Of a stretch of 64,000 nucleotides of DNA, positions 29,003-40,886 are shown one piece after another (positions within the stretch are counted from its first letter, which is position 1; each line of letters starts with the position of its first letter). The translations under genes and the position numbers were made by a program. The DNA is taken from the IMG/VR virus record IMGVR_UViG_3300022902_000012, positions 1-64,000 of that record. One strand, written 5' to 3'. A model generated the notes under the pieces. The model did not search any database. It had not been told where the DNA came from and worked only from the letters and a program-made list of their open reading frames with translations. This DNA is from an uncultured virus (IMG/VR IMGVR_UViG_3300022902_000012). Taxonomy: Duplodnaviria; Heunggongvirae; Uroviricota; Caudoviricetes.

Positions 29003-32000
29003 TTATTCATCAAAGGTTACATTTCGGAGAAAACGCCAAAATGGACTGTCCGGATCAAGGTAACCCGGCTTGGTTCTGGTAACGAACAGGCGGTCCTGGG
29101 CGCGGGTGACTGAGACATATAGGAGCCGGGTCTCTTCCTGAGACAGTTCGGGGTCCATCTTGGACTTGGCGCCGGGGAACCTGCCGTGCACCACATCAGC
29201 CAGGATGACGTTCCGGGCCTCCTTGCCTTTGAAGCCGTGGATGGTGCTCAGGGTGAGCACGTCCCCCTGCGACGGCCCTGCCTGGCCCTGGGCCTGCCTG
29301 TGCATCTCATGCATGCGCCGCAGCAGGTCAACCTGAGCCAGCAGCTCCCCTACGGTGTCGAATTCGGAGGCAAATTCCATGAGCTCTTCGAGCACAATGA
29401 ACGCCCCCTCGGAGCCCTCGGCCTTGGTCAGCCCGAACTTCTCGGCTAGGTACTCCACGTAGCCGATCTCATCGATGACGAACTTCATCATCTCGGCGGG
29501 CCCGCGGCCCTCCCGGCCCATGATCCTCAGCCTGATGATCAGCTCCTTCAAGCTCCTGAGAGCCAGCCTCTGTGGCTTGATGAGCCTGGCCTTGTCTAGG
29601 ATCTTGTCGATGAGGTCTGTCTCCTCAGAGCCCTCTGCCGCTGCGTACTGGGGCCTGCCTACGAACCTCTTGGGGACGTTCATGACAGCCCGCAGGGCGG
29701 TCCCGTCAACATCCAGGCCGGCGCCCACCCGCAAGTAGTTGAGCAGGTCCCGGGCCTCACGCCCATCCAGGATGAAGCCCCCGCACAGCTTGATGTACGG
29801 CACCTCGTTCTTGGTACACCAGATGGAGATCCAGTGCAGTACGGCCGCGGTCCTGGCCAGCACCGTGGTCTCCCCCAAGCCCAGCTCCTGAGCCTTATCC
29901 ACGATCCATTTGACCTCGTCCATCCGGCTCTCGAAGGTCTTGAACTCAATGGGCTCACCACCCTCTGCCCGCCGCGGCCGAATCTGACCTGCCAGGTGCC
30001 AGGGCCTACCCTTCACAACAGCCGAGCCCAGGGTGCAGATCTTGTCGGTGGACCGGTAGTTGTTCGGGAGCTTGAACAGCTTGGCCTTGTCCCTGTCGAT
30101 GAACTGCAGGATAACCCCAGGTTCCGCAGTGCGCCAGGAATACACACTGTTGTGGACAGCGATACCGTTGGCGAAGTAGTTGGTCGTTCCATCGATATCC
30201 AGGTCCCTCAATTCGAGAGGTTCTTCCGATCGGTAACCTGTCTTGGCTACAACCTCGTCGGGTGCTCCGTCGTCCCCCCAGATCCAGGTACCTGGAACGA
30301 GATTGGCCAGTGGCATAGCTGTCATTTTCTCCCCGCAGGGTCCTTTGGCACTGCTCAAGCTGACCCTAAGGACGGCACGAATTTTAGTTGCACCAGCAAC
30401 TATGTCCCCAATCTGCTCGGCAGCAGCATGTGCTTCCGCACCGGATGGGTATCTCCGACGAATCCTGGCTGTCCCGCGACGTCCGTCTCGGACAGAGATA
30501 CCTGTACAGGCTGTTATCGCCTCACGAATCTTTTGGGGCGCCAGTTCCTGTGATTCGCAGGTCAGCTCAGCCGGCCGATTGTTTTTAACACCCAATGTCA
30601 ATGTAATAATGATGCGCTTACCGACCTGACTTTGGGGTAAGTACGTGGGCCAGGCAAAGAGCATATGAAACAACTTGAGGATCTTTGGCCCCCCCTTGCA
30701 TCCGAATTCCTTGAATATGGCTGCAGCTCCGGCTTCCGACAGGCGTAGCTTCCGACCCACTGTCTTGAACGGGAGTGTAGGGACCTTGTAGCGTAAAGAC
30801 AGCTGCAGCTCTTGCAGAGCAGCATCAGCTGCCGTCTCATGACAATCGAGCAGCCACAGGGCATCAGCTCCTTCGTGCAATGCCCGAACGGATACAGAGT
30901 GACGGGCTGCGTTTTTTGCACCTTGGGTAAGTCCTATCCGAAACCCCATGTCTTTGCGCCACATGAGGTAGGTGTAGAAGCGGACATTGGAGTGGGGCAT
31001 GCAGGCAAAGACCAGGTGGTCGGAAGAGCCCTCTAGAATTCTCCCAGATGCTGTCTTGATCTTCGTTATCTCGGTCTTGTCTGTCGCTCCGGCATGTTGG
31101 ACTGTTCTAAACACCTGTTTGCCACCCTGGCATGAACCGACAGAGTCCCCGGCTTCGATATCCCGGAGTAGCACCCTGCCCCGGGTTTTTGTCTGAATCA
31201 TTGTCGTGTGGGGGTTCAGGCACTGGCTCAAGTCTCCGGCCAGCATCAAGTTCTGATCCCGGTCGGACCCACCCACCGTCGGGTAGATTCGGCTGGGCAG
31301 CCCCGCGGCCAGGCGCATCAGATCATGCTGGATGCCACTGCAGTCCTGAGCCTCATCCACGATGACCACGGACCACTGGGACCTCCACCAGGCCAGCAGG
31401 TCAGGACTCCCGATGAGCAGGTGCCAGACGAAGGACTGCACATCGTCGTAGCTGTACTTGGCCATGTCCCAGCGCAGCGCCTCGATCTCCTGATACATGG
31501 TCAAGGCCTGCTGAGAATCGATGGGCATCTTGTCGGCCAACCACGACTCAGCTATCCGCCGTACCAGCTCCCGGCCGTTGTCATTCAGACCAAACCAGTC
31601 CTTACGCCAGGGGACAGGCCCTGTGTTCTTGCACCGAGACATGAAGGTGGACAGCACCTCGTGGTCTACGATCATCTCAGGGATCACCTTCATCTTCTTG
31701 AGACGGTCGACCTGGGCACGCTGGGCGGCCGGCAAAGCACCGTCCTCGTCGTGCGACATGGCATCGAAGAGCCAGGGCGCCATCTTCGGCCCCCTGTCGT
31801 AGCAAAGCCCGTGGATGGTTCTGACCTCACATCCCTCGATACCCATCCCCGAGAGCCGCTCGATCATCTCCCCACAGGCTGCCCGGGTGAATGTGACCAG
31901 CAGTATCCGCCACGAATCCACCCCGGCCTCGACCAGGTCCCTCACCCGCTCCAGCAGGCACCGAGTTTTGCCACTGTTATGGACCAGGAACCCGGAGGCT

Positions 32001-32884
32001 TCGAAGTTATGATGTGGCCCCTTCATCTTGATGTCGTATGTACGCTGCGGCCCAGCCGGGGAGACCGACTTAACGATTCCGACCCGGGTATATTTGATGC
32101 CAAAGTTTTCATCTTTGCCATGAAGTCTGGCATGGGCCTTTTTCGACAGCAGCTGTAGATTCTCAGGGACATCATTGAGGGAGTCCTCATCCTTATGGTG
32201 GACCTCCAACTTAGGGTCCAGATAAGAGAAGATGGAGGGCAAGTCTCCCCGAGTTTTCAAGATTGCAACATAGTCGGAATAAGGAATCCCATTGATGGAG
32301 GCTTCCAGGACCAAACGAGCCCGCGGCACTTCCCAGTATCTGTACTTCTCCTCACGAATACGGAGGGTCCCGGCGGGATGATGGACATGGAGGGTAACAA
32401 CCCGACGTTTAGCATATCGGGTTCTCCCTTCCCCCTTCTTAGGGAGCATATTCCCGAGGAGAAGGACCTCATCGCCGGCGGACAGTTGCCCGGCCGGCTT
32501 TCCATCAATAAGGTCCGAAGGAGTCAGGAAGGGATGGTCCCGGGTACATGTTAATTCCAGGCCGCATCGGGTCGTAACGATGAGACAGTCCTGAACTCCG
32601 GAATCCACGATGGCCTCGATCTCGCGGTAGGCCACAACCCCCCCAGGCTCAATCGACTTGATCCTAGATGTCATGGACAGGTCCCGACCTATCGACCTCC
32701 TGCACGGGAGACCATTGAATTTCCGGTAGGCCTCCTCGATTGTGTAGGGCCGAGATCCGGGTCGTTGTCCCCTGCTAATACCCACGATAGCGTCGGCTGC
32801 GAGGCAACCTGGGTTGCCGGCCACCACCGAGGGGCCCAGGCGATGCACCGCTACTTGCTGCTGATCTTCATCCAGATTAATCAT
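29003..32884 (-). CDS. uvrD: UvrD/PcrA-family SF1 helicase precursor with two inteins (about 658 aa after splicing)
   Basis: GNPG|SGKT, 'VTFTRAA', 'TIHG', 'DEAQD', GDLSQ|SVYSWR, 'NYRST', 'LSTIHGFKGKE', 'EETRLLYVSVTRAQ'. Confidence 0.93.
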   Translation of the reverse strand: MINLDEDQQQVAVHRLGPSVVAGNPGCLAADAIVGISRGQRPGSRPYTIEEAYRKFNGLPCRRSIGRDLSMTSRIKSIEPGGVVAYREIEAIVDSGVQDCLIVTTRCGLELTCTRDHPFLTPSDLIDGKPAGQLSAGDEVLLLGNMLPKKGEGRTRYAKRRVVTLHVHHPAGTLRIREEKYRYWEVPRARLVLEASINGIPYSDYVAILKTRGDLPSIFSYLDPKLEVHHKDEDSLNDVPENLQLLSKKAHARLHGKDENFGIKYTRVGIVKSVSPAGPQRTYDIKMKGPHHNFEASGFLVHNSGKTRCLLERVRDLVEAGVDSWRILLVTFTRAACGEMIERLSGMGIEGCEVRTIHGLCYDRGPKMAPWLFDAMSHDEDGALPAAQRAQVDRLKKMKVIPEMIVDHEVLSTFMSRCKNTGPVPWRKDWFGLNDNGRELVRRIAESWLADKMPIDSQQALTMYQEIEALRWDMAKYSYDDVQSFVWHLLIGSPDLLAWWRSQWSVVIVDEAQDCSGIQHDLMRLAAGLPSRIYPTVGGSDRDQNLMLAGDLSQCLNPHTTMIQTKTRGRVLLRDIEAGDSVGSCQGGKQVFRTVQHAGATDKTEITKIKTASGRILEGSSDHLVFACMPHSNVRFYTYLMWRKDMGFRIGLTQGAKNAARHSVSVRALHEGADALWLLDCHETAADAALQELQLSLRYKVPTLPFKTVGRKLRLSEAGAAAIFKEFGCKGGPKILKLFHMLFAWPTYLPQSQVGKRIIITLTLGVKNNRPAELTCESQELAPQKIREAITACTGISVRDGRRGTARIRRRYPSGAEAHAAAEQIGDIVAGATKIRAVLRVSLSSAKGPCGEKMTAMPLANLVPGTWIWGDDGAPDEVVAKTGYRSEEPLELRDLDIDGTTNYFANGIAVHNSVYSWRTAEPGVILQFIDRDKAKLFKLPNNYRSTDKICTLGSAVVKGRPWHLAGQIRPRRAEGGEPIEFKTFESRMDEVKWIVDKAQELGLGETTVLARTAAVLHWISIWCTKNEVPYIKLCGGFILDGREARDLLNYLRVGAGLDVDGTALRAVMNVPKRFVGRPQYAAAEGSEETDLIDKILDKARLIKPQRLALRSLKELIIRLRIMGREGRGPAEMMKFVIDEIGYVEYLAEKFGLTKAEGSEGAFIVLEELMEFASEFDTVGELLAQVDLLRRMHEMHRQAQGQAGPSQGDVLTLSTIHGFKGKEARNVILADVVHGRFPGAKSKMDPELSQEETRLLYVSVTRAQDRLFVTRTKPGYLDPDSPFWRFLRNVTFDE
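30149..31222 (-). mobile_element. Intein 2 of UvrD (358 aa) with a non-LAGLIDADG, possibly GIY-YIG-like central domain
   Basis: Starts CLNPHT, block B 'GSSDHLVF', ends 'NYFANGIAVHN' before Ser; inserted in the GDxxQ|SxY motif. Confidence 0.9.
31976..32806 (-). mobile_element. Intein 1 of UvrD (277 aa) with an in-frame HNH endonuclease
   Basis: Starts CLAADA, 'TCTRDHPFLT', HNH 'EVHHKDEDSLNDVPENLQLLSKKAHARLH', ends 'HNFEASGFLVHN' before Ser; inserted in Walker A. Confidence 0.92.
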
Positions 32885-33684: not shown

Positions 33685-36360
33685 TCAGTCCTCCTCCTTT
33701 GTCCCGGCCAGCAGCCTGGCGATCATCTCGGCGACGATCATCTTGCGGGGGATGGCGTACCACTTGGCGCCCTTGAGCAGCTTGGCCTTGGTGGGGCCCC
33801 TGTCGGGCTCAGGCTCCGATTCCCCGGCCAGTGGGCTCTTACCGTCACCAGGCAACAACCAGCTCACGCAGATCTCTCCAGTGGCCTCCTTGGCGCACAA
33901 CAGGGGATCATCCTTGGAGCCTCGGCTGACCCGGTCGACCAGGGACTTGAGCAGTCCATCGCAGGCCTTCTTGATCTGCTTGTCGTCGAGGCCATCAGGG
34001 GTATCCCCGAACAGTTGGCCCAACCAATGCTTGTCGGTGTCGTCGACCCAGTCATGTAGCTGGTCGGGCTCAAGCGCCCCAATGCTCTCAACGCACTCAT
34101 ACTGGTACTTGAAGTACGGAATGATCTGGTCAGCGATACCCGCAGCCCCGCCCTCCTTGACATCCCGAGTGCTGGACAAGCCCTCGGCAACAGGCTTGGC
34201 CGACGGCGCCGAGTACCCGGCGGGGGGCTTTTCGAAGTAGGGCCCTCCACGCTGTAGCACATCGATGACCCGCTCATCGGACTGCACAAACTTGTGATCC
34301 ATCCCGGTCAGCCCGCACAAGCCCATCGAGCACATCTCGAAGAAGTCGCAACGCCCCCACCGGCCGACACAGTTGACCGTGCACTTGGGGAACCAGTTGT
34401 CCACGGTCAAGCCCCTCTTCTTCACCTCCTTTTCCTTGCCCCACAGGACAAGGTGCTGGGCCAGGTCGGTAGCCGCGGGGATCATCTCATGTTCCCAACA
34501 CCGCTCGATGTCCGCAGCCTTGCAGTCAGTAGCCACCCGCACCACATCGTCAGGGGCGATAGCCTGCACACCACCCTCTTCCCGTGGCTTTACCATGATG
34601 GTGACCTGGGTCTGGGCCAGCGGCCCCCACCCATCCGTCTTCTCGTAGTTCCCGTACCGAACCAGGGCGCCGTACCCCGTCAGCTGGAAGTCCAACCCGA
34701 AGGCCTGGTAGAGCTCCAGGGTGAGCATGGAGGCTGTCTTCTCGTCGTGTACCACCACCCCAGCTCGGCCGTCCACGTCCCGAGCGCCCCGGGACACATC
34801 ATCCAGGCGCCCCACAAACCGCAACCGCCGACGACCCAGTCCAGTGATCGATACAGGCTCTTCGCACACCGCCTCCAGCCGACACTCAACAGCCAGGATG
34901 CGACCCCCGTCCTCGACCGACTTGTCCAGGTGCCCGAACTTGGACAACCTCGTCCGCAGGCATGCCCGGGCGATGGCCAGCTCCTCCCCCAGCACCCCAG
35001 CACCAGCCTTGTTCTCGACGAACCGCAGCGGATCCTCCCACCGGTCGAGGCCATAAGACTTGGCGAACTGCAGGCTCGCATGTACCAGCGTCCCGATCTG
35101 GAACTGTTGCTGCGGCAACCTGTGCTTCAGCCCCAACACATGGGCCAGGAACACCCGCCGCTTGCACTGCTGCCAGTCGATCAGGATGTGGATGTTGAAT
35201 CCCCAGTCCAAAGACGACCCACCCGAGTATCCCTTCAGGCCGCCCAACAGCACCCCCACATCAGGCTTACCCAGGGCCAGCCCGATCTCCTCCTCCCTCA
35301 GGATAGAGTCGATCAGCGAGATAGACTCACCACCACCCTCAGGCAGCTCGGGGAGGGGTGCGGACGACGACCCCTCAGGCACCTCAACCTCAGCTCCCAG
35401 GCCCTCACCCAGGTCCTTGCTCTCCTCTTCAGGAACCTCGACCTTCTTGCTCTCCCAGGCCGGCGCCTCCTCCCCTCGAAGAACGAATACATGCTCCAGC
35501 TTCACCCAGCCTGGTTCATCTGTGTATGACCCTTCGAGCTTTGCCCGACAGTAGACCTTGTCACCTGACACCTGCTGGAGCAGGGCGCAATCGAAGGACA
35601 TGTTGTCAGCGACAGGGCCGAAGCCCGTCTCCACGTCCCCCTGCCTGATAGCAACTGCCCCCTCATACCCCACGGCGTCAACAGGGAACGGGACCCACTT
35701 GTCCTGGAACTCCAGCTCCTTGTGGCCCAGGTCAACGCCACACCCATCACACTGGTCCCTCTCGTGCATCTCGTAGGAGAGGCGAGCCTGGCACTTGGGG
35801 CACTTGCCCCGCGGGTCATCCTTTTCCTTCTCGAGCATCGGGTTGCTCTTGACCTTCTTCTTTCTCTTCGTCACAGGCACCCGGATCATCGAGGTAGGCG
35901 TCCAGGTCCCGGGGTCATCATCGGTCTTGCATAACAACAGGAACTCCTGGCCGTCCTCTTCCCGACGGTAGTAGTCCCGCAGCTCCCCCAGCTCAGGGTA
36001 GCCGCCCGACACCCGCAGCAGGCCCTGCATCCCGACCTCCCGCTCACTGGCCGGCAGCCACTCGATCTCCTCAGGCCCAGGCCCCTCGTAAGGCCCCCGC
36101 TCTGCCTCATCCTTGGCCAGGTCCAGGCGTGCCTTCGCAGCATCCGACTCAGCTCGAATCTCCTCGACCGCCTTGGGGCAGATGCGATCCGCCTCGTAGT
36201 ACTTGTCGCAGTAGGCATGGACATCCGGGGTCCGCATCCCGATCTCCCCACCCCAGCAACCCCGCGGCATGGGCCCCGTCGTTACTCCAGCCTCGGCATC
36301 GATAGCCACCACCTGCCCACATCGGCACATCACTGCACTGTTACTCTCCGGCTTACCCAT
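33685..36360 (-). CDS. PD-(D/E)XK Cas4/RecB-like exonuclease with long acidic, Zn-ribbon-containing extensions
   Basis: 'WQQCKRR', 'IGTLVHASL', 'FVGRLDDV', 'VHDEKTAS', 'QLTGYG', 'CVGRWGRCDFFEMC'. Confidence 0.8.
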   Translation of the reverse strand: MGKPESNSAVMCRCGQVVAIDAEAGVTTGPMPRGCWGGEIGMRTPDVHAYCDKYYEADRICPKAVEEIRAESDAAKARLDLAKDEAERGPYEGPGPEEIEWLPASEREVGMQGLLRVSGGYPELGELRDYYRREEDGQEFLLLCKTDDDPGTWTPTSMIRVPVTKRKKKVKSNPMLEKEKDDPRGKCPKCQARLSYEMHERDQCDGCGVDLGHKELEFQDKWVPFPVDAVGYEGAVAIRQGDVETGFGPVADNMSFDCALLQQVSGDKVYCRAKLEGSYTDEPGWVKLEHVFVLRGEEAPAWESKKVEVPEEESKDLGEGLGAEVEVPEGSSSAPLPELPEGGGESISLIDSILREEEIGLALGKPDVGVLLGGLKGYSGGSSLDWGFNIHILIDWQQCKRRVFLAHVLGLKHRLPQQQFQIGTLVHASLQFAKSYGLDRWEDPLRFVENKAGAGVLGEELAIARACLRTRLSKFGHLDKSVEDGGRILAVECRLEAVCEEPVSITGLGRRRLRFVGRLDDVSRGARDVDGRAGVVVHDEKTASMLTLELYQAFGLDFQLTGYGALVRYGNYEKTDGWGPLAQTQVTIMVKPREEGGVQAIAPDDVVRVATDCKAADIERCWEHEMIPAATDLAQHLVLWGKEKEVKKRGLTVDNWFPKCTVNCVGRWGRCDFFEMCSMGLCGLTGMDHKFVQSDERVIDVLQRGGPYFEKPPAGYSAPSAKPVAEGLSSTRDVKEGGAAGIADQIIPYFKYQYECVESIGALEPDQLHDWVDDTDKHWLGQLFGDTPDGLDDKQIKKACDGLLKSLVDRVSRGSKDDPLLCAKEATGEICVSWLLPGDGKSPLAGESEPEPDRGPTKAKLLKGAKWYAIPRKMIVAEMIARLLAGTKEED

Positions 36361-36385: not shown

Positions 36386-36769
36386 CTATCCGACCCGGTG
36401 GAACAACCGGATCTGGTCAGCTTGTTCAGGTGTCAGCAGTAGGACAGTACGGCCCCCTGTCTCCATAGACTTTCCCCGTCCAGGTTCAGGGAGCACACAC
36501 TCCCGCTCCATCTCCAGGATCTTCTGGCGGCTCACCCCCAATTCCTCGCCCAGTTGCACCCTGGTAATCCGCTCGCCCTTGGCGCCCCGCATCCACTTGA
36601 TCTTCAGGCGGTAGCATTGCTGGTGCAGGGCCTTCTTCGTCACCCCCAACCGACGAGCACCCACCTCCATGGAAACCTTCCCAGCCAGGTGCAGCAGTCC
36701 CTCTCGGCGGGTCATCCTCTCCCCCCCGATCCGAACACCCTCATTCCAGATTCCTCTCTTGCCAGCCAT
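36386..36769 (-). CDS. Tandem HTH DNA-binding protein
   Basis: 'SMEVGARRLGVTKKAL' and 'TRVQLGEELGVSRQKILEME'. Confidence 0.65.
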   Translation of the reverse strand: MAGKRGIWNEGVRIGGERMTRREGLLHLAGKVSMEVGARRLGVTKKALHQQCYRLKIKWMRGAKGERITRVQLGEELGVSRQKILEMERECVLPEPGRGKSMETGGRTVLLLTPEQADQIRLFHRVG

Positions 36770-36779
36770 CAGTCTCTCC

Positions 36780-37682
36780 TCACAACCAGAGCCACATACC
36801 AAGAAGCGTCAGCCCCGCCCCAACGGCAACCCCGAACAATACTCCCCAGACGGGACCAGGCACCCAGCTCTCCTGTATAGGTTCTCTCGGCGCCACCTTC
36901 TCGACGGTATCAGCGAGGCTCAATCCCCCTCCCTGAATTCCCTTATGCAGCTCTCTCTTGAAGTCCTCCACCATGGGGCCAATGATCCTTTTCACTTGTT
37001 CTCTTTGTTCAGGACTCGGTGGGAGTATCACCAGCTGGGTGTTATCAGGTGGGGGGATAACTCCCTTCCCCCCTTCGTAGCCTGCAGCAGCCAAAGCATC
37101 CAACTGCCTCTGCCTGTGCGGCCCATCCCCCACGAAGATACGGAAGTCAGGCCCTCCACCGATGCGGCTTCCCCTGCCCCCGGCCTGGATTACAGTATCT
37201 GGCGCCCCCACCCCAGGATCCAGGGCCACCCACTGAACGTTCGGGATGTCAATCCCTGTCCCCCACACTCGAGTCGCTACGGCTACCCAGGCATCCCCGT
37301 CATCCAGACGCTGCCGCATCCCCTCTCGCAGCACCTTGCTCTTGACCCGGGCATCACTCACTTCGATGACCCGGTCCCCCCGGAACCCCTCGATCCCGAG
37401 CAGCCCCAACCGTATCTTCAGCCACTGGGCTATCAGGTCCCCTGTCGGCAGGTCCCCCACCAACACCAAACCTGGCCAGCTCCCCTCGCTCAAAGCCACC
37501 AGCACATCCTTCAGGATGCCCTCCCAGGCGACATCCAGCCGGCCCTGCTCCCCCCACAGGCTCGACCCACTCGCCCCCTTCTCACCACCGGGCTCAATCC
37601 CACCGTCGTGCCAGTTAACAACAGCTCCACCACCCGCCAGCTGGATCTCCCTGTCCCGGGGGTTACCTTTGCACGGACCCAT
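36780..37682 (-). CDS. SF2 helicase C-terminal (RecA2) half with a hydrophobic C-terminal helix
   Basis: Motif V 'VATRVWGTGIDIPNV', motif VI 'IQAGGRGSR'; ends 'VWGVLFGVAVGAGLTLLGMWLWL'. Confidence 0.7.
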   Translation of the reverse strand: MGPCKGNPRDREIQLAGGGAVVNWHDGGIEPGGEKGASGSSLWGEQGRLDVAWEGILKDVLVALSEGSWPGLVLVGDLPTGDLIAQWLKIRLGLLGIEGFRGDRVIEVSDARVKSKVLREGMRQRLDDGDAWVAVATRVWGTGIDIPNVQWVALDPGVGAPDTVIQAGGRGSRIGGGPDFRIFVGDGPHRQRQLDALAAAGYEGGKGVIPPPDNTQLVILPPSPEQREQVKRIIGPMVEDFKRELHKGIQGGGLSLADTVEKVAPREPIQESWVPGPVWGVLFGVAVGAGLTLLGMWLWL

Positions 37683-37802
37683 CAGATTCCCAGCTTTCCT
37701 GTAATGTAACCTTCTCCCAACAATATCGTCACCTTACACGCCATCTTATACTCCCTTGCCCGAAAATCCCCAAATATAACAGCTATCCGATATCATTGTG
37801 GA

Positions 37803-37837
37803 AAACCTGTGGACAAAGGTTACATTTACAGAAACCC
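37803..37837. repeat. 35-bp inverted repeat, copy 2, with tandem DnaA-box-like 9-mers
   Basis: aaacctgtggacaaaggttacatttacagaaaccc; minus strand TTTTCCACA (37797-37805) and TTGTCCACA (37808-37816). Confidence 0.95.
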
Positions 37838-37870
37838 ACGTCACACCTTATGCGCATGTGCGCGATCCCC

Positions 37871-37918
37871 GGGACTACTACCTGCGGTAGCAGCCCCAGT
37901 AGTAGTACCAGTACTACT
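37871..37918. other. Two adjacent hairpins downstream of the 37914-38171 gene
   Basis: agtagtac-ca-gtactact (37901-37918) and ctacc-tgc-ggtag within 37871-37897. Confidence 0.45.
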
Positions 37919-38171
37919 CATCGGAGGAATCCTCTTTGCGCTCAGCCGGGACCCAGAGGTGGAATGTCATGTAGCTCGGGAGGCATCCTCCATTACTGAT
38001 GGCCCTGGCTGCCTTTTCGATAGGTGTTGTGTCTTTGTCGGACGGGGACTGGCGGAGCAACACAGTGGCTTTTCCTTCCTCGCTCAGCCCCAGTCGGTCT
38101 TCAACAAAGGTCTGCTCAAGCAGGTTCTCGCACTCCAAGCACAGGCCATCTTCATCAAAGGTAACTTTCAT
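37914..38171 (-). CDS. Hypothetical protein between the two helicase halves
   Basis: 85 aa; ATGA overlap with the stop of the helicase N-half. Confidence 0.55.
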   Translation of the reverse strand: MKVTFDEDGLCLECENLLEQTFVEDRLGLSEEGKATVLLRQSPSDKDTTPIEKAARAISNGGCLPSYMTFHLWVPAERKEDSSDE

Positions 38172-40222
38172 GTCCTCACAACCTCCCCGCGGGCTAGGTA
38201 CCCACCCCGCTCCAAGTCAGCAATCTCGGCCACCCGTACAATAGGCCCCAGCGCGCACAGCATCAGGCAGTTCCGACCGTCTTGTCTCCCATCAGGAGTA
38301 GCTGTCAGGCCAATACGGCAGCGGGCCCTGAGGCGCCCCAGGACGGGCAAACGTGTATTACTCATGGCTGCATGGCAGTTATGGACTACAAATCCGTTAG
38401 CGGTGTAGGTGTGCAGCCCCTCAACCTCGAGATTGTAGACAAGACCGTCTGGGCACACCCTCTCGTATTCTTCAAAACTTCCTTGTTGGAAAACCTGAAT
38501 ACGATCCACCCGAGTCCAGCGAGGAACTTGTCTTTCTTCCGGTCCTGACCTCGCCTCTCTGAACTGTTGTGACTCTGGCCGTCTACCTCGATGGCTACCA
38601 TCAGATCCGGTTGGGCAATGTCGATCTTGTAATGGGTGGGATATCCCCTGGATTTCGGGCCCACCCCTTCTGGAAGGCCTAGTCTCGTCGGGACAATGTG
38701 CTCCATTCCCCAACCGAGTAAACCTGCCAGCATTCGTTGGGGGACTGTAGGTTCTCGTCCGTTGCCCCCCCTCTCGACCCCTTCCGGCCAGCCCCTCTCC
38801 CTCACCTTGGCGGTCACCAGGGCGCGAACCTTGGGATCCTTCATCGGGTTGTTCTTCCGCATTCGCTCGGATGACTTCTTTGACCACTCCTCGCGATGCT
38901 CCTCCCGGGTTCTGGCCCACACCTTCACTCGGTATTCCTTGACACATTGAACCGAGCAGTAACCCCCCTTTCCTCGGGAAAGTTGGTAGAGGGCAGACGG
39001 GCCCCGACTCCCCTGACAGATAATCCCCTTCCCGCAGTTTATGCAGTTCGTCTTGACTCTCTTCCTTCGTTCTTCCCTCCTCGTCAATTTGCATGTTTGG
39101 CAGAACAGGGATGCTCCGTTGTGATGTCTTTTCTTCCCTGTCTCCTGTCCGCATCTGTCGCAGGTGCCGTCTATCGATCTCTTCTGATGACCTTTTACTG
39201 TTTGATTCTCCATGCTTTCTGTACCCCTCTGGTTTGTGGTAGGGTACAGTGTATAGCACTCTGTCGTTGCGAGCAATCGTCTTGGCTGGTATCCAGCCTC
39301 GTTGGGTGAAAACGGGGTGTTCCTCGGTGCAGATGAATGAACCATCCTGCGTGGTAATCTGGATCAGAGATGATGGGGCTTTTCTCACGAAAGTTCCTGT
39401 GACGGTCCTCCTCTCAAGATTCCCAGATGTCTCATTGTAGGCACTGACTTGGTCCCCGATCTCAATGTCCTCAATGGGCTTTCCGTCAACCAAGGTCCCT
39501 GCTGGGAAGCACTCATCAATCACAACGCCGTCCAGGGCCCCCACAGCCTCCCCAGCAGTCCCTACGGACATGCACTGAGGCACCCCCTGCCCAACATCCC
39601 CACCAACCACATCCCTCATCTCAGGGATCACCCTGTCAAACACCTTCTGGGTCTGCCGAGCCAGCTCCTGGTTCACCACCAGGTACCCGACCTTCTCTAG
39701 TCCAAGCAGCTCCTGCATGCACATAAGCAGCCCCGCGGCCATCACAGTTTTGCCACTGCCGGTCGCAGCTTGGATCACACACCTCCCCCACGGTGCACAC
39801 AACCCCTCCACGATCCCCTCAGCTTGGTAATCACGCAGCGGCATCAGCAGCCCTTCATCCCGCAACGTCAGGACAGCTGACTCAATCCGCAGCTGAATCA
39901 GCTCGGGCAACCAGGGATTAACAACAGCCCCCCCAACACCCCGGAGCCGGAGCAGCATAGGCTCAGTCTCATGCACTATATGCAGCCAGCTCATCATGCC
40001 CACGGGTACCTGCCCACTCGACAGAGAGCCCGCCCTCAGCACCTCAAGGGCCCCCTGGACTTCCATAACCAATTCTTCAGTACTGACGCGCCCATCCCGC
40101 ATCTCCCGGGACCGATACCCCAAGGTCGTTCGCTCGTAGGCCGCCAACATGCTGACGAGGTTTGCCCTCCTACATCCCCCATGCCCCCAGGTATCCCCCA
40201 TCCCGTCGACCAGAACGATCAT
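38168..40222 (-). CDS. SF2 (DExH) helicase N-terminal (RecA1) half, intein-containing
   Basis: 'LRDYQ', 'AATGSGKT', 'VIDE|CH', 'IGLTATPDGRQDG'; ends at the interdomain linker 'GYLARGEVVRT'. Confidence 0.85.
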   Translation of the reverse strand: MIVLVDGMGDTWGHGGCRRANLVSMLAAYERTTLGYRSREMRDGRVSTEELVMEVQGALEVLRAGSLSSGQVPVGMMSWLHIVHETEPMLLRLRGVGGAVVNPWLPELIQLRIESAVLTLRDEGLLMPLRDYQAEGIVEGLCAPWGRCVIQAATGSGKTVMAAGLLMCMQELLGLEKVGYLVVNQELARQTQKVFDRVIPEMRDVVGGDVGQGVPQCMSVGTAGEAVGALDGVVIDECFPAGTLVDGKPIEDIEIGDQVSAYNETSGNLERRTVTGTFVRKAPSSLIQITTQDGSFICTEEHPVFTQRGWIPAKTIARNDRVLYTVPYHKPEGYRKHGESNSKRSSEEIDRRHLRQMRTGDREEKTSQRSIPVLPNMQIDEEGRTKEESQDELHKLREGDYLSGESGPVCPLPTFPRKGGLLLGSMCQGIPSEGVGQNPGGASRGVVKEVIRANAEEQPDEGSQGSRPGDRQGEGEGLAGRGREGGQRTRTYSPPTNAGRFTRLGNGAHCPDETRPSRRGGPEIQGISHPLQDRHCPTGSDGSHRGRRPESQQFREARSGPEERQVPRWTRVDRIQVFQQGSFEEYERVCPDGLVYNLEVEGLHTYTANGFVVHNCHAAMSNTRLPVLGRLRARCRIGLTATPDGRQDGRNCLMLCALGPIVRVAEIADLERGGYLARGEVVRT
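38386..39213 (-). CDS. Nested out-of-frame DUF559/Vsr-like endonuclease with Zn-finger and NUMOD-like regions, inside the intein
   Basis: 275 aa: CxxC motifs, 'GYCSVQC', 'RMRKNNPMKDP', 'YKIDIAQPDLMVAIEVDGQSH...DRKKDKFLAGLGWIVFRFSNKEV'; GAGGGG RBS. Confidence 0.85.
   Translation of the reverse strand: MENQTVKGHQKRSIDGTCDRCGQETGKKRHHNGASLFCQTCKLTRREERRKRVKTNCINCGKGIICQGSRGPSALYQLSRGKGGYCSVQCVKEYRVKVWARTREEHREEWSKKSSERMRKNNPMKDPKVRALVTAKVRERGWPEGVERGGNGREPTVPQRMLAGLLGWGMEHIVPTRLGLPEGVGPKSRGYPTHYKIDIAQPDLMVAIEVDGQSHNSSERRGQDRKKDKFLAGLGWIVFRFSNKEVLKNTRGCAQTVLSTISRLRGCTPTPLTDL
39248..39276 (-). promoter_or_regulatory. Putative internal promoter for the nested endonuclease
   Basis: TTGCTC (39276-39271), 17 nt, TACACT (39253-39248); 34 nt upstream of ATG 39213. 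Confidence 0.5.
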
Positions 40223-40503
40223 TCTGAGTCCTTAGTGATGGGATCAGGTTCAACGAACAGCATGCATCCGCAGTAACTCTTGCGAATCTTTTGCGGGTGA
40301 TACCCCGTCCCTTTGTCCTTCTTAGCGGGTGCAGCACCGGAGATGCACATCCCTTTGGGAAGTGTTGTCCAACCTCGATCACTCTGCGGCGGCTCGCCCT
40401 TGCGAGAAGGCTGGTCCAGGTGGCTATCCCGAGGATGCCCACAGCGAGCACAGATATTTTCGGGAGTTCGGTACTTATCTGACCAATGCGGCATCACTCC
40501 CAC
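40219..40503 (-). CDS. Small Zn-binding protein
   Basis: 'CARCGHPRDSH...YCGCMLF'. Confidence 0.5.
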   Translation of the reverse strand: MGVMPHWSDKYRTPENICARCGHPRDSHLDQPSRKGEPPQSDRGWTTLPKGMCISGAAPAKKDKGTGYHPQKIRKSYCGCMLFVEPDPITKDSE

Positions 40504-40886
40504 CTCCTCTTGGCGTCCCGCTTGTTAAAGCGTTTATCGAACCAGTCTATTTTGCGCCAACTCATGATTGCTCCTTAGCGGTGCCTTTTGCTTTATCCAT
40601 CTCTTGCCGCGCCCACCTGGCCCCGTCGAATTGGCCGTTGAATTTCCCAATGCAGTATCCGGCCCAGTAGCCCAGTCCGCCCACCGCAAAAAGGCTGATC
40701 AAAATAATCTCGCCCATGGCTACTCCTCCTGCTCCTTTGGGGTGGTTACCATTCCGAGGATCACCCTCAGAGCCTTCAGTCGGGCCTGTGGCCCACCGCG
40801 CTTCATGTGGCTATTCCAAGGTGACCGGAGGAACTTTTCGGTATCCTCGATCTCCTCGAGCAACCATTCGATGGCCTCGGGTTCCG

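Follow-up and report, generated by a model that had tools for sequence, protein, structure and literature searches.

A helicase intein of an uncultured phage with a putative homing endonuclease gene nested in its +1 reading frame

An intein endonuclease lying in a separate reading frame was reportedly described by Gorbalenya in 1998, a work that later ones cite for such an arrangement. Gosselin, Arsenault & Gogarten (bioRxiv 10.1101/2025.01.02.630785) describe actinophage inteins with endonuclease VII-like enzymes in frame 3 and with LAGLIDADG or VSR-like enzymes on the antisense strand; they expect annotation to miss many elements of this sort, and propose that a free-standing endonuclease gene invaded the intein. 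Phillips, DeSimone & Gogarten (bioRxiv 2026) report a +2 LAGLIDADG open reading frame (ORF) in a dnaX intein. Three further papers describe a Vsr-like family between the halves of split inteins (Dassa et al. 2009, PMC2677866), the characterised enzyme I-Bth0305I (PDB 3r3p), which serves as prototype for Vsr-like homing endonucleases of the EDxHD kind (Taylor et al. 2011, PMC3239194), and the ShiLan ‘hidden HNH’ insertion of phage methylases, in which an out-of-frame HNH gene is hidden without an intein (Arsenault et al. 2025, PMC11855218). Here we analyse a locus in the first 64,000 nucleotides (the window) of the uncultured Caudoviricetes record IMGVR_UViG_3300022902_000012 from IMG/VR. It lies in a helicase gene and is, very probably, a mobile intein whose homing endonuclease is not an intein domain but a gene in its own right, encoded in the +1 frame across the central linker of the intein.

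The original prediction for this DNA, made from its letters alone, placed a 378-aa intein in the DE^CH box (^ marks a splice junction) of a superfamily 2 (SF2) helicase. Coordinates, junctions and profile matches agree with it, and whatever it stated about the letters themselves proved correct. The intein, CFPAGT...VVHN (38378..39511, minus strand), sits between the E and the C of DECH, preceded by ‘VVIDE’ and followed by ‘CHAAMS’. It belongs to class 1, having Cys1, the block B motif T-x-x-H (as TEEH) and a C-terminal His-Asn followed by Cys+1. The Pfam profile Intein_splicing matched with 36.3 bits for the whole ORF (cut-off 35.8) and 38.8 bits for the intein alone, and PT-HINT with 39–40.7 bits. 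C1, T62, H65, H377 and N378 are invariant among 52 aligned inteins, and the conserved positions of the C-terminal Hint subdomain in this alignment are V358, Y359, N360, Y369, V376, H377 and N378. Given these catalytic residues, and a host gene that stays open in 79 of the 80 loci described below, the intein is probably able to splice.

We built an AlphaFold2 (AF2) model of the intein frame with the 52 aligned inteins. The predicted local distance difference test (pLDDT) values were 95–98 for the N-terminal Hint subdomain (Hint-N; residues 1–90, 39242..39511, minus strand), which holds blocks A and B including TEEH, and 89–98 for the C-terminal one (Hint-C; residues 330–378, 38378..38524, minus strand), which holds blocks F/G and VVHN. 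Residues 91–329 between them (38525..39241, minus strand) form a linker that is a stop-free shadow of the nuclease gene, with pLDDT of 41–67 and no secondary structure. The two confident parts consist of beta strands and the linker is predicted to be disordered, in keeping with the earlier description of the central intein frame as free of stops and disordered-looking.

The +1 frame is open from 39345, and its ATG at 39213–39211 gives a product of 275 aa plus stop (38386..39213, minus strand). As had been predicted, the stop codon ends 8 nt short of the intein end (38386 versus 38378), so that the gene overlaps the C-terminal splicing blocks. When both frames were searched with profiles, Intein_splicing and PT-HINT were found in one, and DUF559 (PF04480; 42.2 bits, cut-off 20.6) and REase_MTES_1575 (38.8 bits, cut-off 38.2) in the other; the DUF559 match occurs in the +1 frame only, between the splicing blocks of the contiguous intein. 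The N-terminal part of the product has two CxxC...C..C zinc-finger modules (residues 17–92, 38938..39165, minus strand), with conserved C57, C60, C86 and C90 and a weak zf-FCS match; YacG, MYM and L33 zinc ribbons are among its fold and sequence matches. Residues 157–264 (38422..38745, minus strand), as supported by pLDDT, conservation and comparison with 3hrl and 3r3p, make up the catalytic core, with YKID, IEVDGQSH, QDRKKD, GWIVFRFSN and a terminal helix.

An alignment of 34 sequences of this nuclease family has one to several CxxC...C..C zinc modules, a ‘TNRKYAS.RMK..NPM’ helix and an invariant GGNG. D198, E209, H215 and D224 are also invariant and D211 is at least 90% conserved; these residues are candidate counterparts of the published E-D-x-H-D positions. 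Where the family has ‘AIEVDG’, I-Bth0305I aligns as ‘AIEVNG’. The AF2 model of the +1 product, built with the same 34 sequences, averages a pLDDT of 81.2 and exceeds 90 over most of the core. Against solved structures, the nuclease profile matched the DUF559 protein 3hrl at E=2.4e-10 and, at a borderline E=0.024, 3r3p; the top rows of a Foldseek search included 3r3p, which is the catalytic domain of I-Bth0305I (prob 0.99, TMt 0.66), as well as 3hrl and the Vsr structures 1cw0 and 1vsr. The prediction of a 275-aa +1 protein with a DUF559/Vsr-like nuclease is borne out by these matches, and we regard the protein as a putative homing endonuclease (Vsr-like, probably EDxHD-type) in which a Vsr-like/DUF559 core is combined with zinc-finger and NUMOD-like DNA-binding modules.

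The arrangement recurs well beyond this phage. A tblastn search of 50,697 phage records with the +1 product matched 41, and in 40 of these the match lies under a coding sequence annotated as helicase, ‘coil containing protein’ or hypothetical protein. Seven isolate-phage loci were examined (Pseudomonas phage MR14; Vibrio phages CP-T1, 104E43.1, K391, 159E43-1b and 1.194.O; Corynebacterium phage phi673): all seven show the +1 nesting, with the annotated coding sequence open across the match and the intein at the same DEC^F...VHN^CH junctions. Scanning IMG/VR with the 34-nuclease alignment gave 382 stretches that encode a relative. Locus counts from IMG/VR given here refer to the best 80 of these 382, one of which is the window’s own contig. 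In 79 loci the host frame is open across the whole nuclease match, and the one remaining locus is truncated where its contig ends; no open stretch of the third frame exceeds 93 aa. By regular expression, the DE^C N-terminal junction was recognised in 69 of the 80 loci. Of the host ORFs, 49 are non-redundant: helicase-family Pfam domains (ResIII, Helicase_C, DEAD, SNF2-related, Helicase_C_2 or ERCC3) occur in 47 of them, a further one (L087) encodes an AAA protein of clamp-loader type (DNA_pol3_delta2), and the last has Hint domains only. Five of the IMG/VR host helicases (L031, L032, L055, L084 and L092) contain a second intein, recognised by Hom_end_hint in L031, L032 and L055 (L032 also has Hom_end) and by two Intein_splicing stretches each in L084 and L092. 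One cluster of nuclease relatives bears an NCBI name from Synergistes jonesii.

A few relatives depart from this plan. In L090 (2377–4610) and P0079, the N-extein, Hint-N and nuclease are fused in one frame and the host frame is broken; the nuclease lacks its own start and the first CxxC, and a second ORF, which overlaps the first, encodes the linker, Hint-C and C-extein, an arrangement that resembles a fractured gene. P0112 switches frame in the middle of the nuclease. The metagenomic protein P0049 (818 aa) is a UvrD-type helicase whose intein (VVVDE^C...LVHN^C) includes the nuclease core in its own frame and lacks the zinc fingers; it is the sole in-frame relative found among longer proteins. 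A quick tree of 74 nuclease cores (89 columns) placed P0049 inside the nested clade with 80–84% SH-aLRT, the outgroup being on a very long branch, and this placement is suggestive only.

We next consider whether the open host frame could be due to chance. At this locus the host frame has no stop, against 10.3 expected when the synonymous codons of the nuclease are permuted with its protein sequence kept fixed, or 18.6 expected from extein codon usage; none of 20000 permutations was stop-free. Of the 83 codons that stand before a codon starting with AA, AG or GA, none ends in T. Ten loci gave the same result, each with 0 host-frame stops against 4.7–15.5 (permutation) or 5.8–27 (codon usage) expected. 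Across 57 distinct IMG/VR loci there are 0 stops in the host frame against 519.7 expected, and 811 in the third frame (12 of 69 distinct loci were dropped from this count because the tblastn match ran past the start or end of the nested ORF). The stop depletion thus holds across homologous inteins. In a distant, free-standing homologue from a Leptolyngbya phage (locus L008), the corresponding frame contains 37 stops.

These counts also bear on whether the nesting is an artefact, in which an ordinary in-frame endonuclease intein was made out-of-frame by two compensating indels. We found nothing in favour of this explanation; one relative, P0049, has its nuclease core truly in frame. Against an artefact, the same frame relation is present in complete isolate genomes from three host genera and in the 79 metagenomic loci, the host frame is not stop-free by chance, and contigs of four other seawater runs cover 37500–40700 with 0 other letters and 0 gaps. 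We give an artefact practically no credence, and chance and compensating indels are excluded as causes of the open frames.

To see which frame is constrained, we counted minimum substitutions per host codon position in eight clusters of close relatives, five of which were informative. At host positions 1/2/3, we obtained 349/227/1127 substitutions for the exteins, 54/31/146 for Hint-N, 310/98/85 for the nuclease/linker region and 27/11/33 for Hint-C. The excess in the exteins is at the host third position, whereas in the nuclease/linker region it is at host position 1, which is the third codon position of the nuclease; the central part therefore evolves as nuclease-coding DNA. Stop depletion and the shift in codon position indicate that both frames are maintained by selection, and that the helicase-frame reading of the linker is required only to stay open. 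They strongly support, as do the seven isolate loci, the 79 open loci and the kept ATG, the central claim of the original prediction, that the nuclease is a separate nested gene and the intein frame an open carrier that is spliced out.

The same numbers speak to the idea that the nuclease ORF is a decaying remnant and the element in effect a mini-intein with a long junk linker. Frame-switched or truncated variants do exist (P0112, P0079 and L090), and related Vibrio phages have mini-inteins at the same site. A relic would, however, have to be reconciled with substitutions concentrated at the nuclease third codon position, with the invariance of D198, E209, H215, D224 and GGNG over the 34 sequences, and with an ORF that is intact in 79 of 80 loci and retains its start codon. 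We consider decay highly improbable.

Mapping the two AF2 models onto the DNA showed that about 100 nt (38422..38524, minus strand) code for confidently predicted parts of both proteins, intein residues 330–363 and nuclease residues 231–264. The last strand and terminal helix of the nuclease (‘GWIVFRFSN...CAQTVLSTISRL’) and Hint-C (‘WTRVDRIQVF...CPDGLVYNLEVEG’) use common bases. Because the terminal helix of the nuclease aligns with the C-terminal helix of the free DUF559 protein 3hrl, we take it to be part of the fold and not mere read-through. Per-site substitution rates are lowest in Hint-C at all three host positions (0.084/0.033/0.10).

How would the nuclease be made? A Shine-Dalgarno-like (SD-like) motif, GAGGGG (39224..39229, minus strand), lies 10 nt upstream of the nested ATG, where the original prediction had put a ribosome-binding site. 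The first CxxC is preceded by an ATG in 64 of the 68 distinct nested ORFs taken from IMG/VR, and in all ten loci examined in detail the +1-frame ATG falls at intein residue 83–100, just past Hint-N. The GAGG of several phages arises from the codons that, in the helicase frame, specify a conserved ‘DEV’ at the end of Hint-N. Window-wide, 19 of 48 ORFs of at least 200 aa have an SD motif, against a background of 0.16. Among the sequencing runs listed as containing this DNA, 20 are seawater DNA runs and none is an RNA run. The promoter proposed for the nested gene, TTGCTC-17-TACACT (39248..39276, minus strand), did not hold up: the sequence is present but weak, matching 8 of 12 consensus positions; our promoter scan did not report it, and the region has 2 promoter-like sites versus 1.3 in shuffles, a chance level. 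As an internal promoter is unsupported, we read the nuclease as probably translated from an internal start on the helicase mRNA. For the same reason, the proposed uncoupling of the nuclease from the host protein applies at most to translation initiation and fails for transcription.

Alternatively, ribosomes on the helicase message could shift to the +1 frame and produce a fusion of N-extein, Hint-N and nuclease, with no internal initiation. The nested ORF is indeed enclosed by one that is translated, and its own frame is already open before the ATG is reached; L090 and P0079 are natural one-frame fusions of just these parts, and about half of the relatives have no SD-like motif. Retention of the ATG, a few codons ahead of the first CxxC, in 64 of 68 distinct ORFs speaks against frameshifting, and so does the +1 frame of the relatives, which opens only 148–289 nt into the intein, just ahead of that ATG. 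Frameshifting is quite unlikely in our judgement, and internal initiation remains the preferred route.

Evidence for mobility comes from close relatives among cultured phages. A megablast search of phages with the K391 helicase gene gave 61 records. Relatives that are 92–94% nucleotide-identical in their exteins have three states at the same DE^CH site. Vibrio phage 234P10 has an empty site, ‘FQDECHHVLRD’, from which exactly the 1068-nt intein is absent; K389, K453 and PS65A have a 150-aa mini-intein at DE^CH with no nested ORF (these four Vibrio phages are our loci L093–L096); and K391 and the 1.194.O group have the full 356-aa dual-coding intein. The Hint part of the mini-intein, judged by eye, clearly differs from that of the full intein, so that the mini-intein is not a recent deletion product. 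In PS65A a further, presumed intein of roughly 360 aa follows GGGK in the Walker A motif.

We propose the following course of events. The helicase frame would be read through N-extein, Hint-N, a disordered linker of about 240 residues, Hint-C and C-extein; the intein would then excise itself, and the discarded linker need only stay stop-free. Ribosomes starting at the internal ATG (39213), behind GAGGGG, would make the 275-aa protein. This protein presumably cuts intein-less helicase alleles at the sequence coding for DE^CH, and repair of the cut allele would copy the whole element in.

The nested protein might instead be a domesticated nuclease, kept for a role other than homing (excluding competing phages, or DNA processing) and merely housed by the intein, an explanation that is compatible with a nested +1 gene. 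Its persistence in many lineages (the 382 IMG/VR stretches) would fit, as would the observation that no very recent transfer between distant hosts was seen: in pairwise comparisons of 47 loci (33 of the 80 were dropped for undefined junctions, duplication or short exteins), a nuclease identity of at least 0.60 went with an extein identity below 0.35 in only 2 of 1081 pairs. On the other side, presence/absence polymorphism at one site in near-identical helicases is a classic homing signature, and I-Bth0305I, the closest characterised structural relative, is a homing endonuclease that cuts the uninterrupted allele (PMC3239194). A domesticated nuclease therefore seems to us very unlikely.

Several observations count against a mobile intein with a nested homing endonuclease. 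Foldseek gave no match to the nuclease model at E ≤0.001, and the sequence match to 3r3p is, as noted, borderline. Only 33 of the 68 distinct relatives have an SD-like 4-mer 4–16 nt ahead of a candidate start, and the proposed promoter is unsupported. Nuclease and Hint pairwise identities are only weakly correlated (Spearman 0.22 over the 1081 pairs, which are non-independent) and do not establish that the two are inherited together. An intein-less allele of this helicase was not found in four seawater runs, which were searched as contigs, a form that drops rare variants. Finally, the host helicase is split into two ORFs in this phage, so that full function of this helicase copy is not certain.

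The two ORFs were compared with the uninterrupted helicase of locus L010. The intein-interrupted ORF (38168..40222, minus strand, 684 aa) encodes the N-terminal half of the SF2 helicase, with Walker A/B and motif III (ResIII, 37.8 bits), and aligns with the L010 protein up to residue 647. A separate ORF of 300 aa (36780..37682, minus strand; Helicase_C, 27.6 bits) encodes the C-terminal (RecA2) lobe and aligns to L010 residues 707–842, which puts the break between residues 647 and 707. Between the halves are an 85-aa ORF with no Pfam match (37914–38171, minus strand) and a spacer of about 230 nt. An Rfam scan of 36500–40600 gave no match (E up to 1), and thus no sign of an intron in the gap. 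Several contigs of one seawater run end or branch within a 35-nt stretch at 37803–37837, with loose ends that differ on both sides, which hints at a population variant or a repeat between the helicase halves.

The neighbouring UvrD-type helicase (29003–32884, minus strand, 1293 aa) carries two more inteins. The first, at its Walker A site (31976–32806, 277 aa, GNPG^C...VHN^S), has an in-frame HNH_3 domain. The second, a probable one (30149–31222, 358 aa, LSQ^C...VHN^S), reached only 21.1 bits with Intein_splicing, and Pfam matched neither its in-frame middle nor the three antisense ORFs that overlie it. Between the two helicase genes lies an 891-aa ORF with a PD-(D/E)XK nuclease domain (33685–36360, minus strand; PDDEXK_1, 40.5 bits), which gives this stretch the look of a replication/recombination module from a seawater phage. 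The IMG/VR record as a whole has 71,992 bases, with a CheckV completeness estimate of 46%.

A wider interpretation is possible, and we put it forward tentatively, thinking it somewhat doubtful as a whole. The sense-strand +1 zinc-finger/DUF559 endonuclease and its Hint domains may be one old and abundant mobile unit, largely missed by annotation, that has spread among the Walker-B (DE^C) sites of P-loop NTPases of no fewer than five kinds (helicases of ResIII/DEAD, SNF2, XPD-like and XPB-like type, and the clamp loader). Its two proteins would be locked together because about 100 nt encode folded parts of both, and it may be the hub from which split and in-frame architectures arise. If so, the unit would be one stop codon or indel away both from fractured-gene split inteins, with L090 and P0079 between, and from a canonical in-frame bifunctional intein such as P0049.

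Whatever its history, annotation of such a locus as ‘helicase’, ‘coil containing protein’ or ‘hypothetical protein’ misses the nuclease gene altogether. Active phage homing endonucleases are therefore undercounted, and inteins of this kind are mistaken for decaying or mini-inteins. The family is a tractable one, with empty, mini and full alleles in cultured Vibrio phages and full alleles in Pseudomonas and Corynebacterium phages. It allows study of how a free-standing endonuclease gene enters an intein, how two folded proteins are kept on one DNA, and how split or in-frame inteins originate.

The concept of an out-of-frame intein endonuclease is already in the literature, as the original prediction had cautioned it might be, and the present element is a large, apparently undescribed form of such non-canonical inteins. 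Among open-access papers and preprints, the latter without their supplementary tables, we found none that describes contiguous helicase inteins with a Vsr-like/DUF559 endonuclease in the +1 frame of the same strand. With the actinobacteriophage inteins (10.1101/2025.01.02.630785) our locus shares a contiguous intein, a linker without recognisable fold and an endonuclease in a separate overlapping ORF. Those inteins interrupt DNA polymerase, minor capsid, terminase and thymidylate synthase genes, whereas here the hosts are helicases, a VSR-like enzyme is read from the +1 frame of the sense strand, and some 100 nt code for structured parts of intein and nuclease alike. The dnaX intein (bioRxiv 2026) is alike in its same-strand overlapping ORF, disordered in-frame linker and Shine-Dalgarno sequence before the nested start, and also in its frame-dependent selection and the coexistence of empty, mini and full alleles; it differs in having a LAGLIDADG enzyme in a +2 ORF within a bacterial chromosomal gene, in place of a zinc-finger/DUF559 enzyme in the +1 frame of phage helicases.

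Two other systems share the nuclease or the layout. I-Bth0305I (PMC3239194) likewise combines a Vsr-like catalytic core with N-terminal DNA-binding modules, but these are NUMOD2/HTH (helix-turn-helix) modules in an enzyme of a recA group I intron, whereas ours are zinc fingers in an enzyme of an intein. The ShiLan insertion (PMC11855218) is similarly open in the host frame and contains an out-of-frame endonuclease gene, but it has no intein splicing domains and its enzyme is of the HNH family, not DUF559.

The family of Dassa et al. (PMC2677866) combines likenesses of both sorts: a Vsr-like nuclease with NUMOD-type N-terminal parts, in phage DNA replication/repair hosts, and an endonuclease 3’ end that overlaps the Int-C coding region, by 6–69 bp in 15 of their loci, as an overlap is also seen here. 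The host frame of that family is interrupted, which leaves two genes and a split intein. Here, by contrast, one host frame runs open across the element, both in the window and in 79 of 80 loci, and only L090 is broken; L090 and P0079 look like forms between fractured genes and nested inteins. The locus described here, with its frame open throughout, would instead yield one precursor that is predicted to splice in cis.

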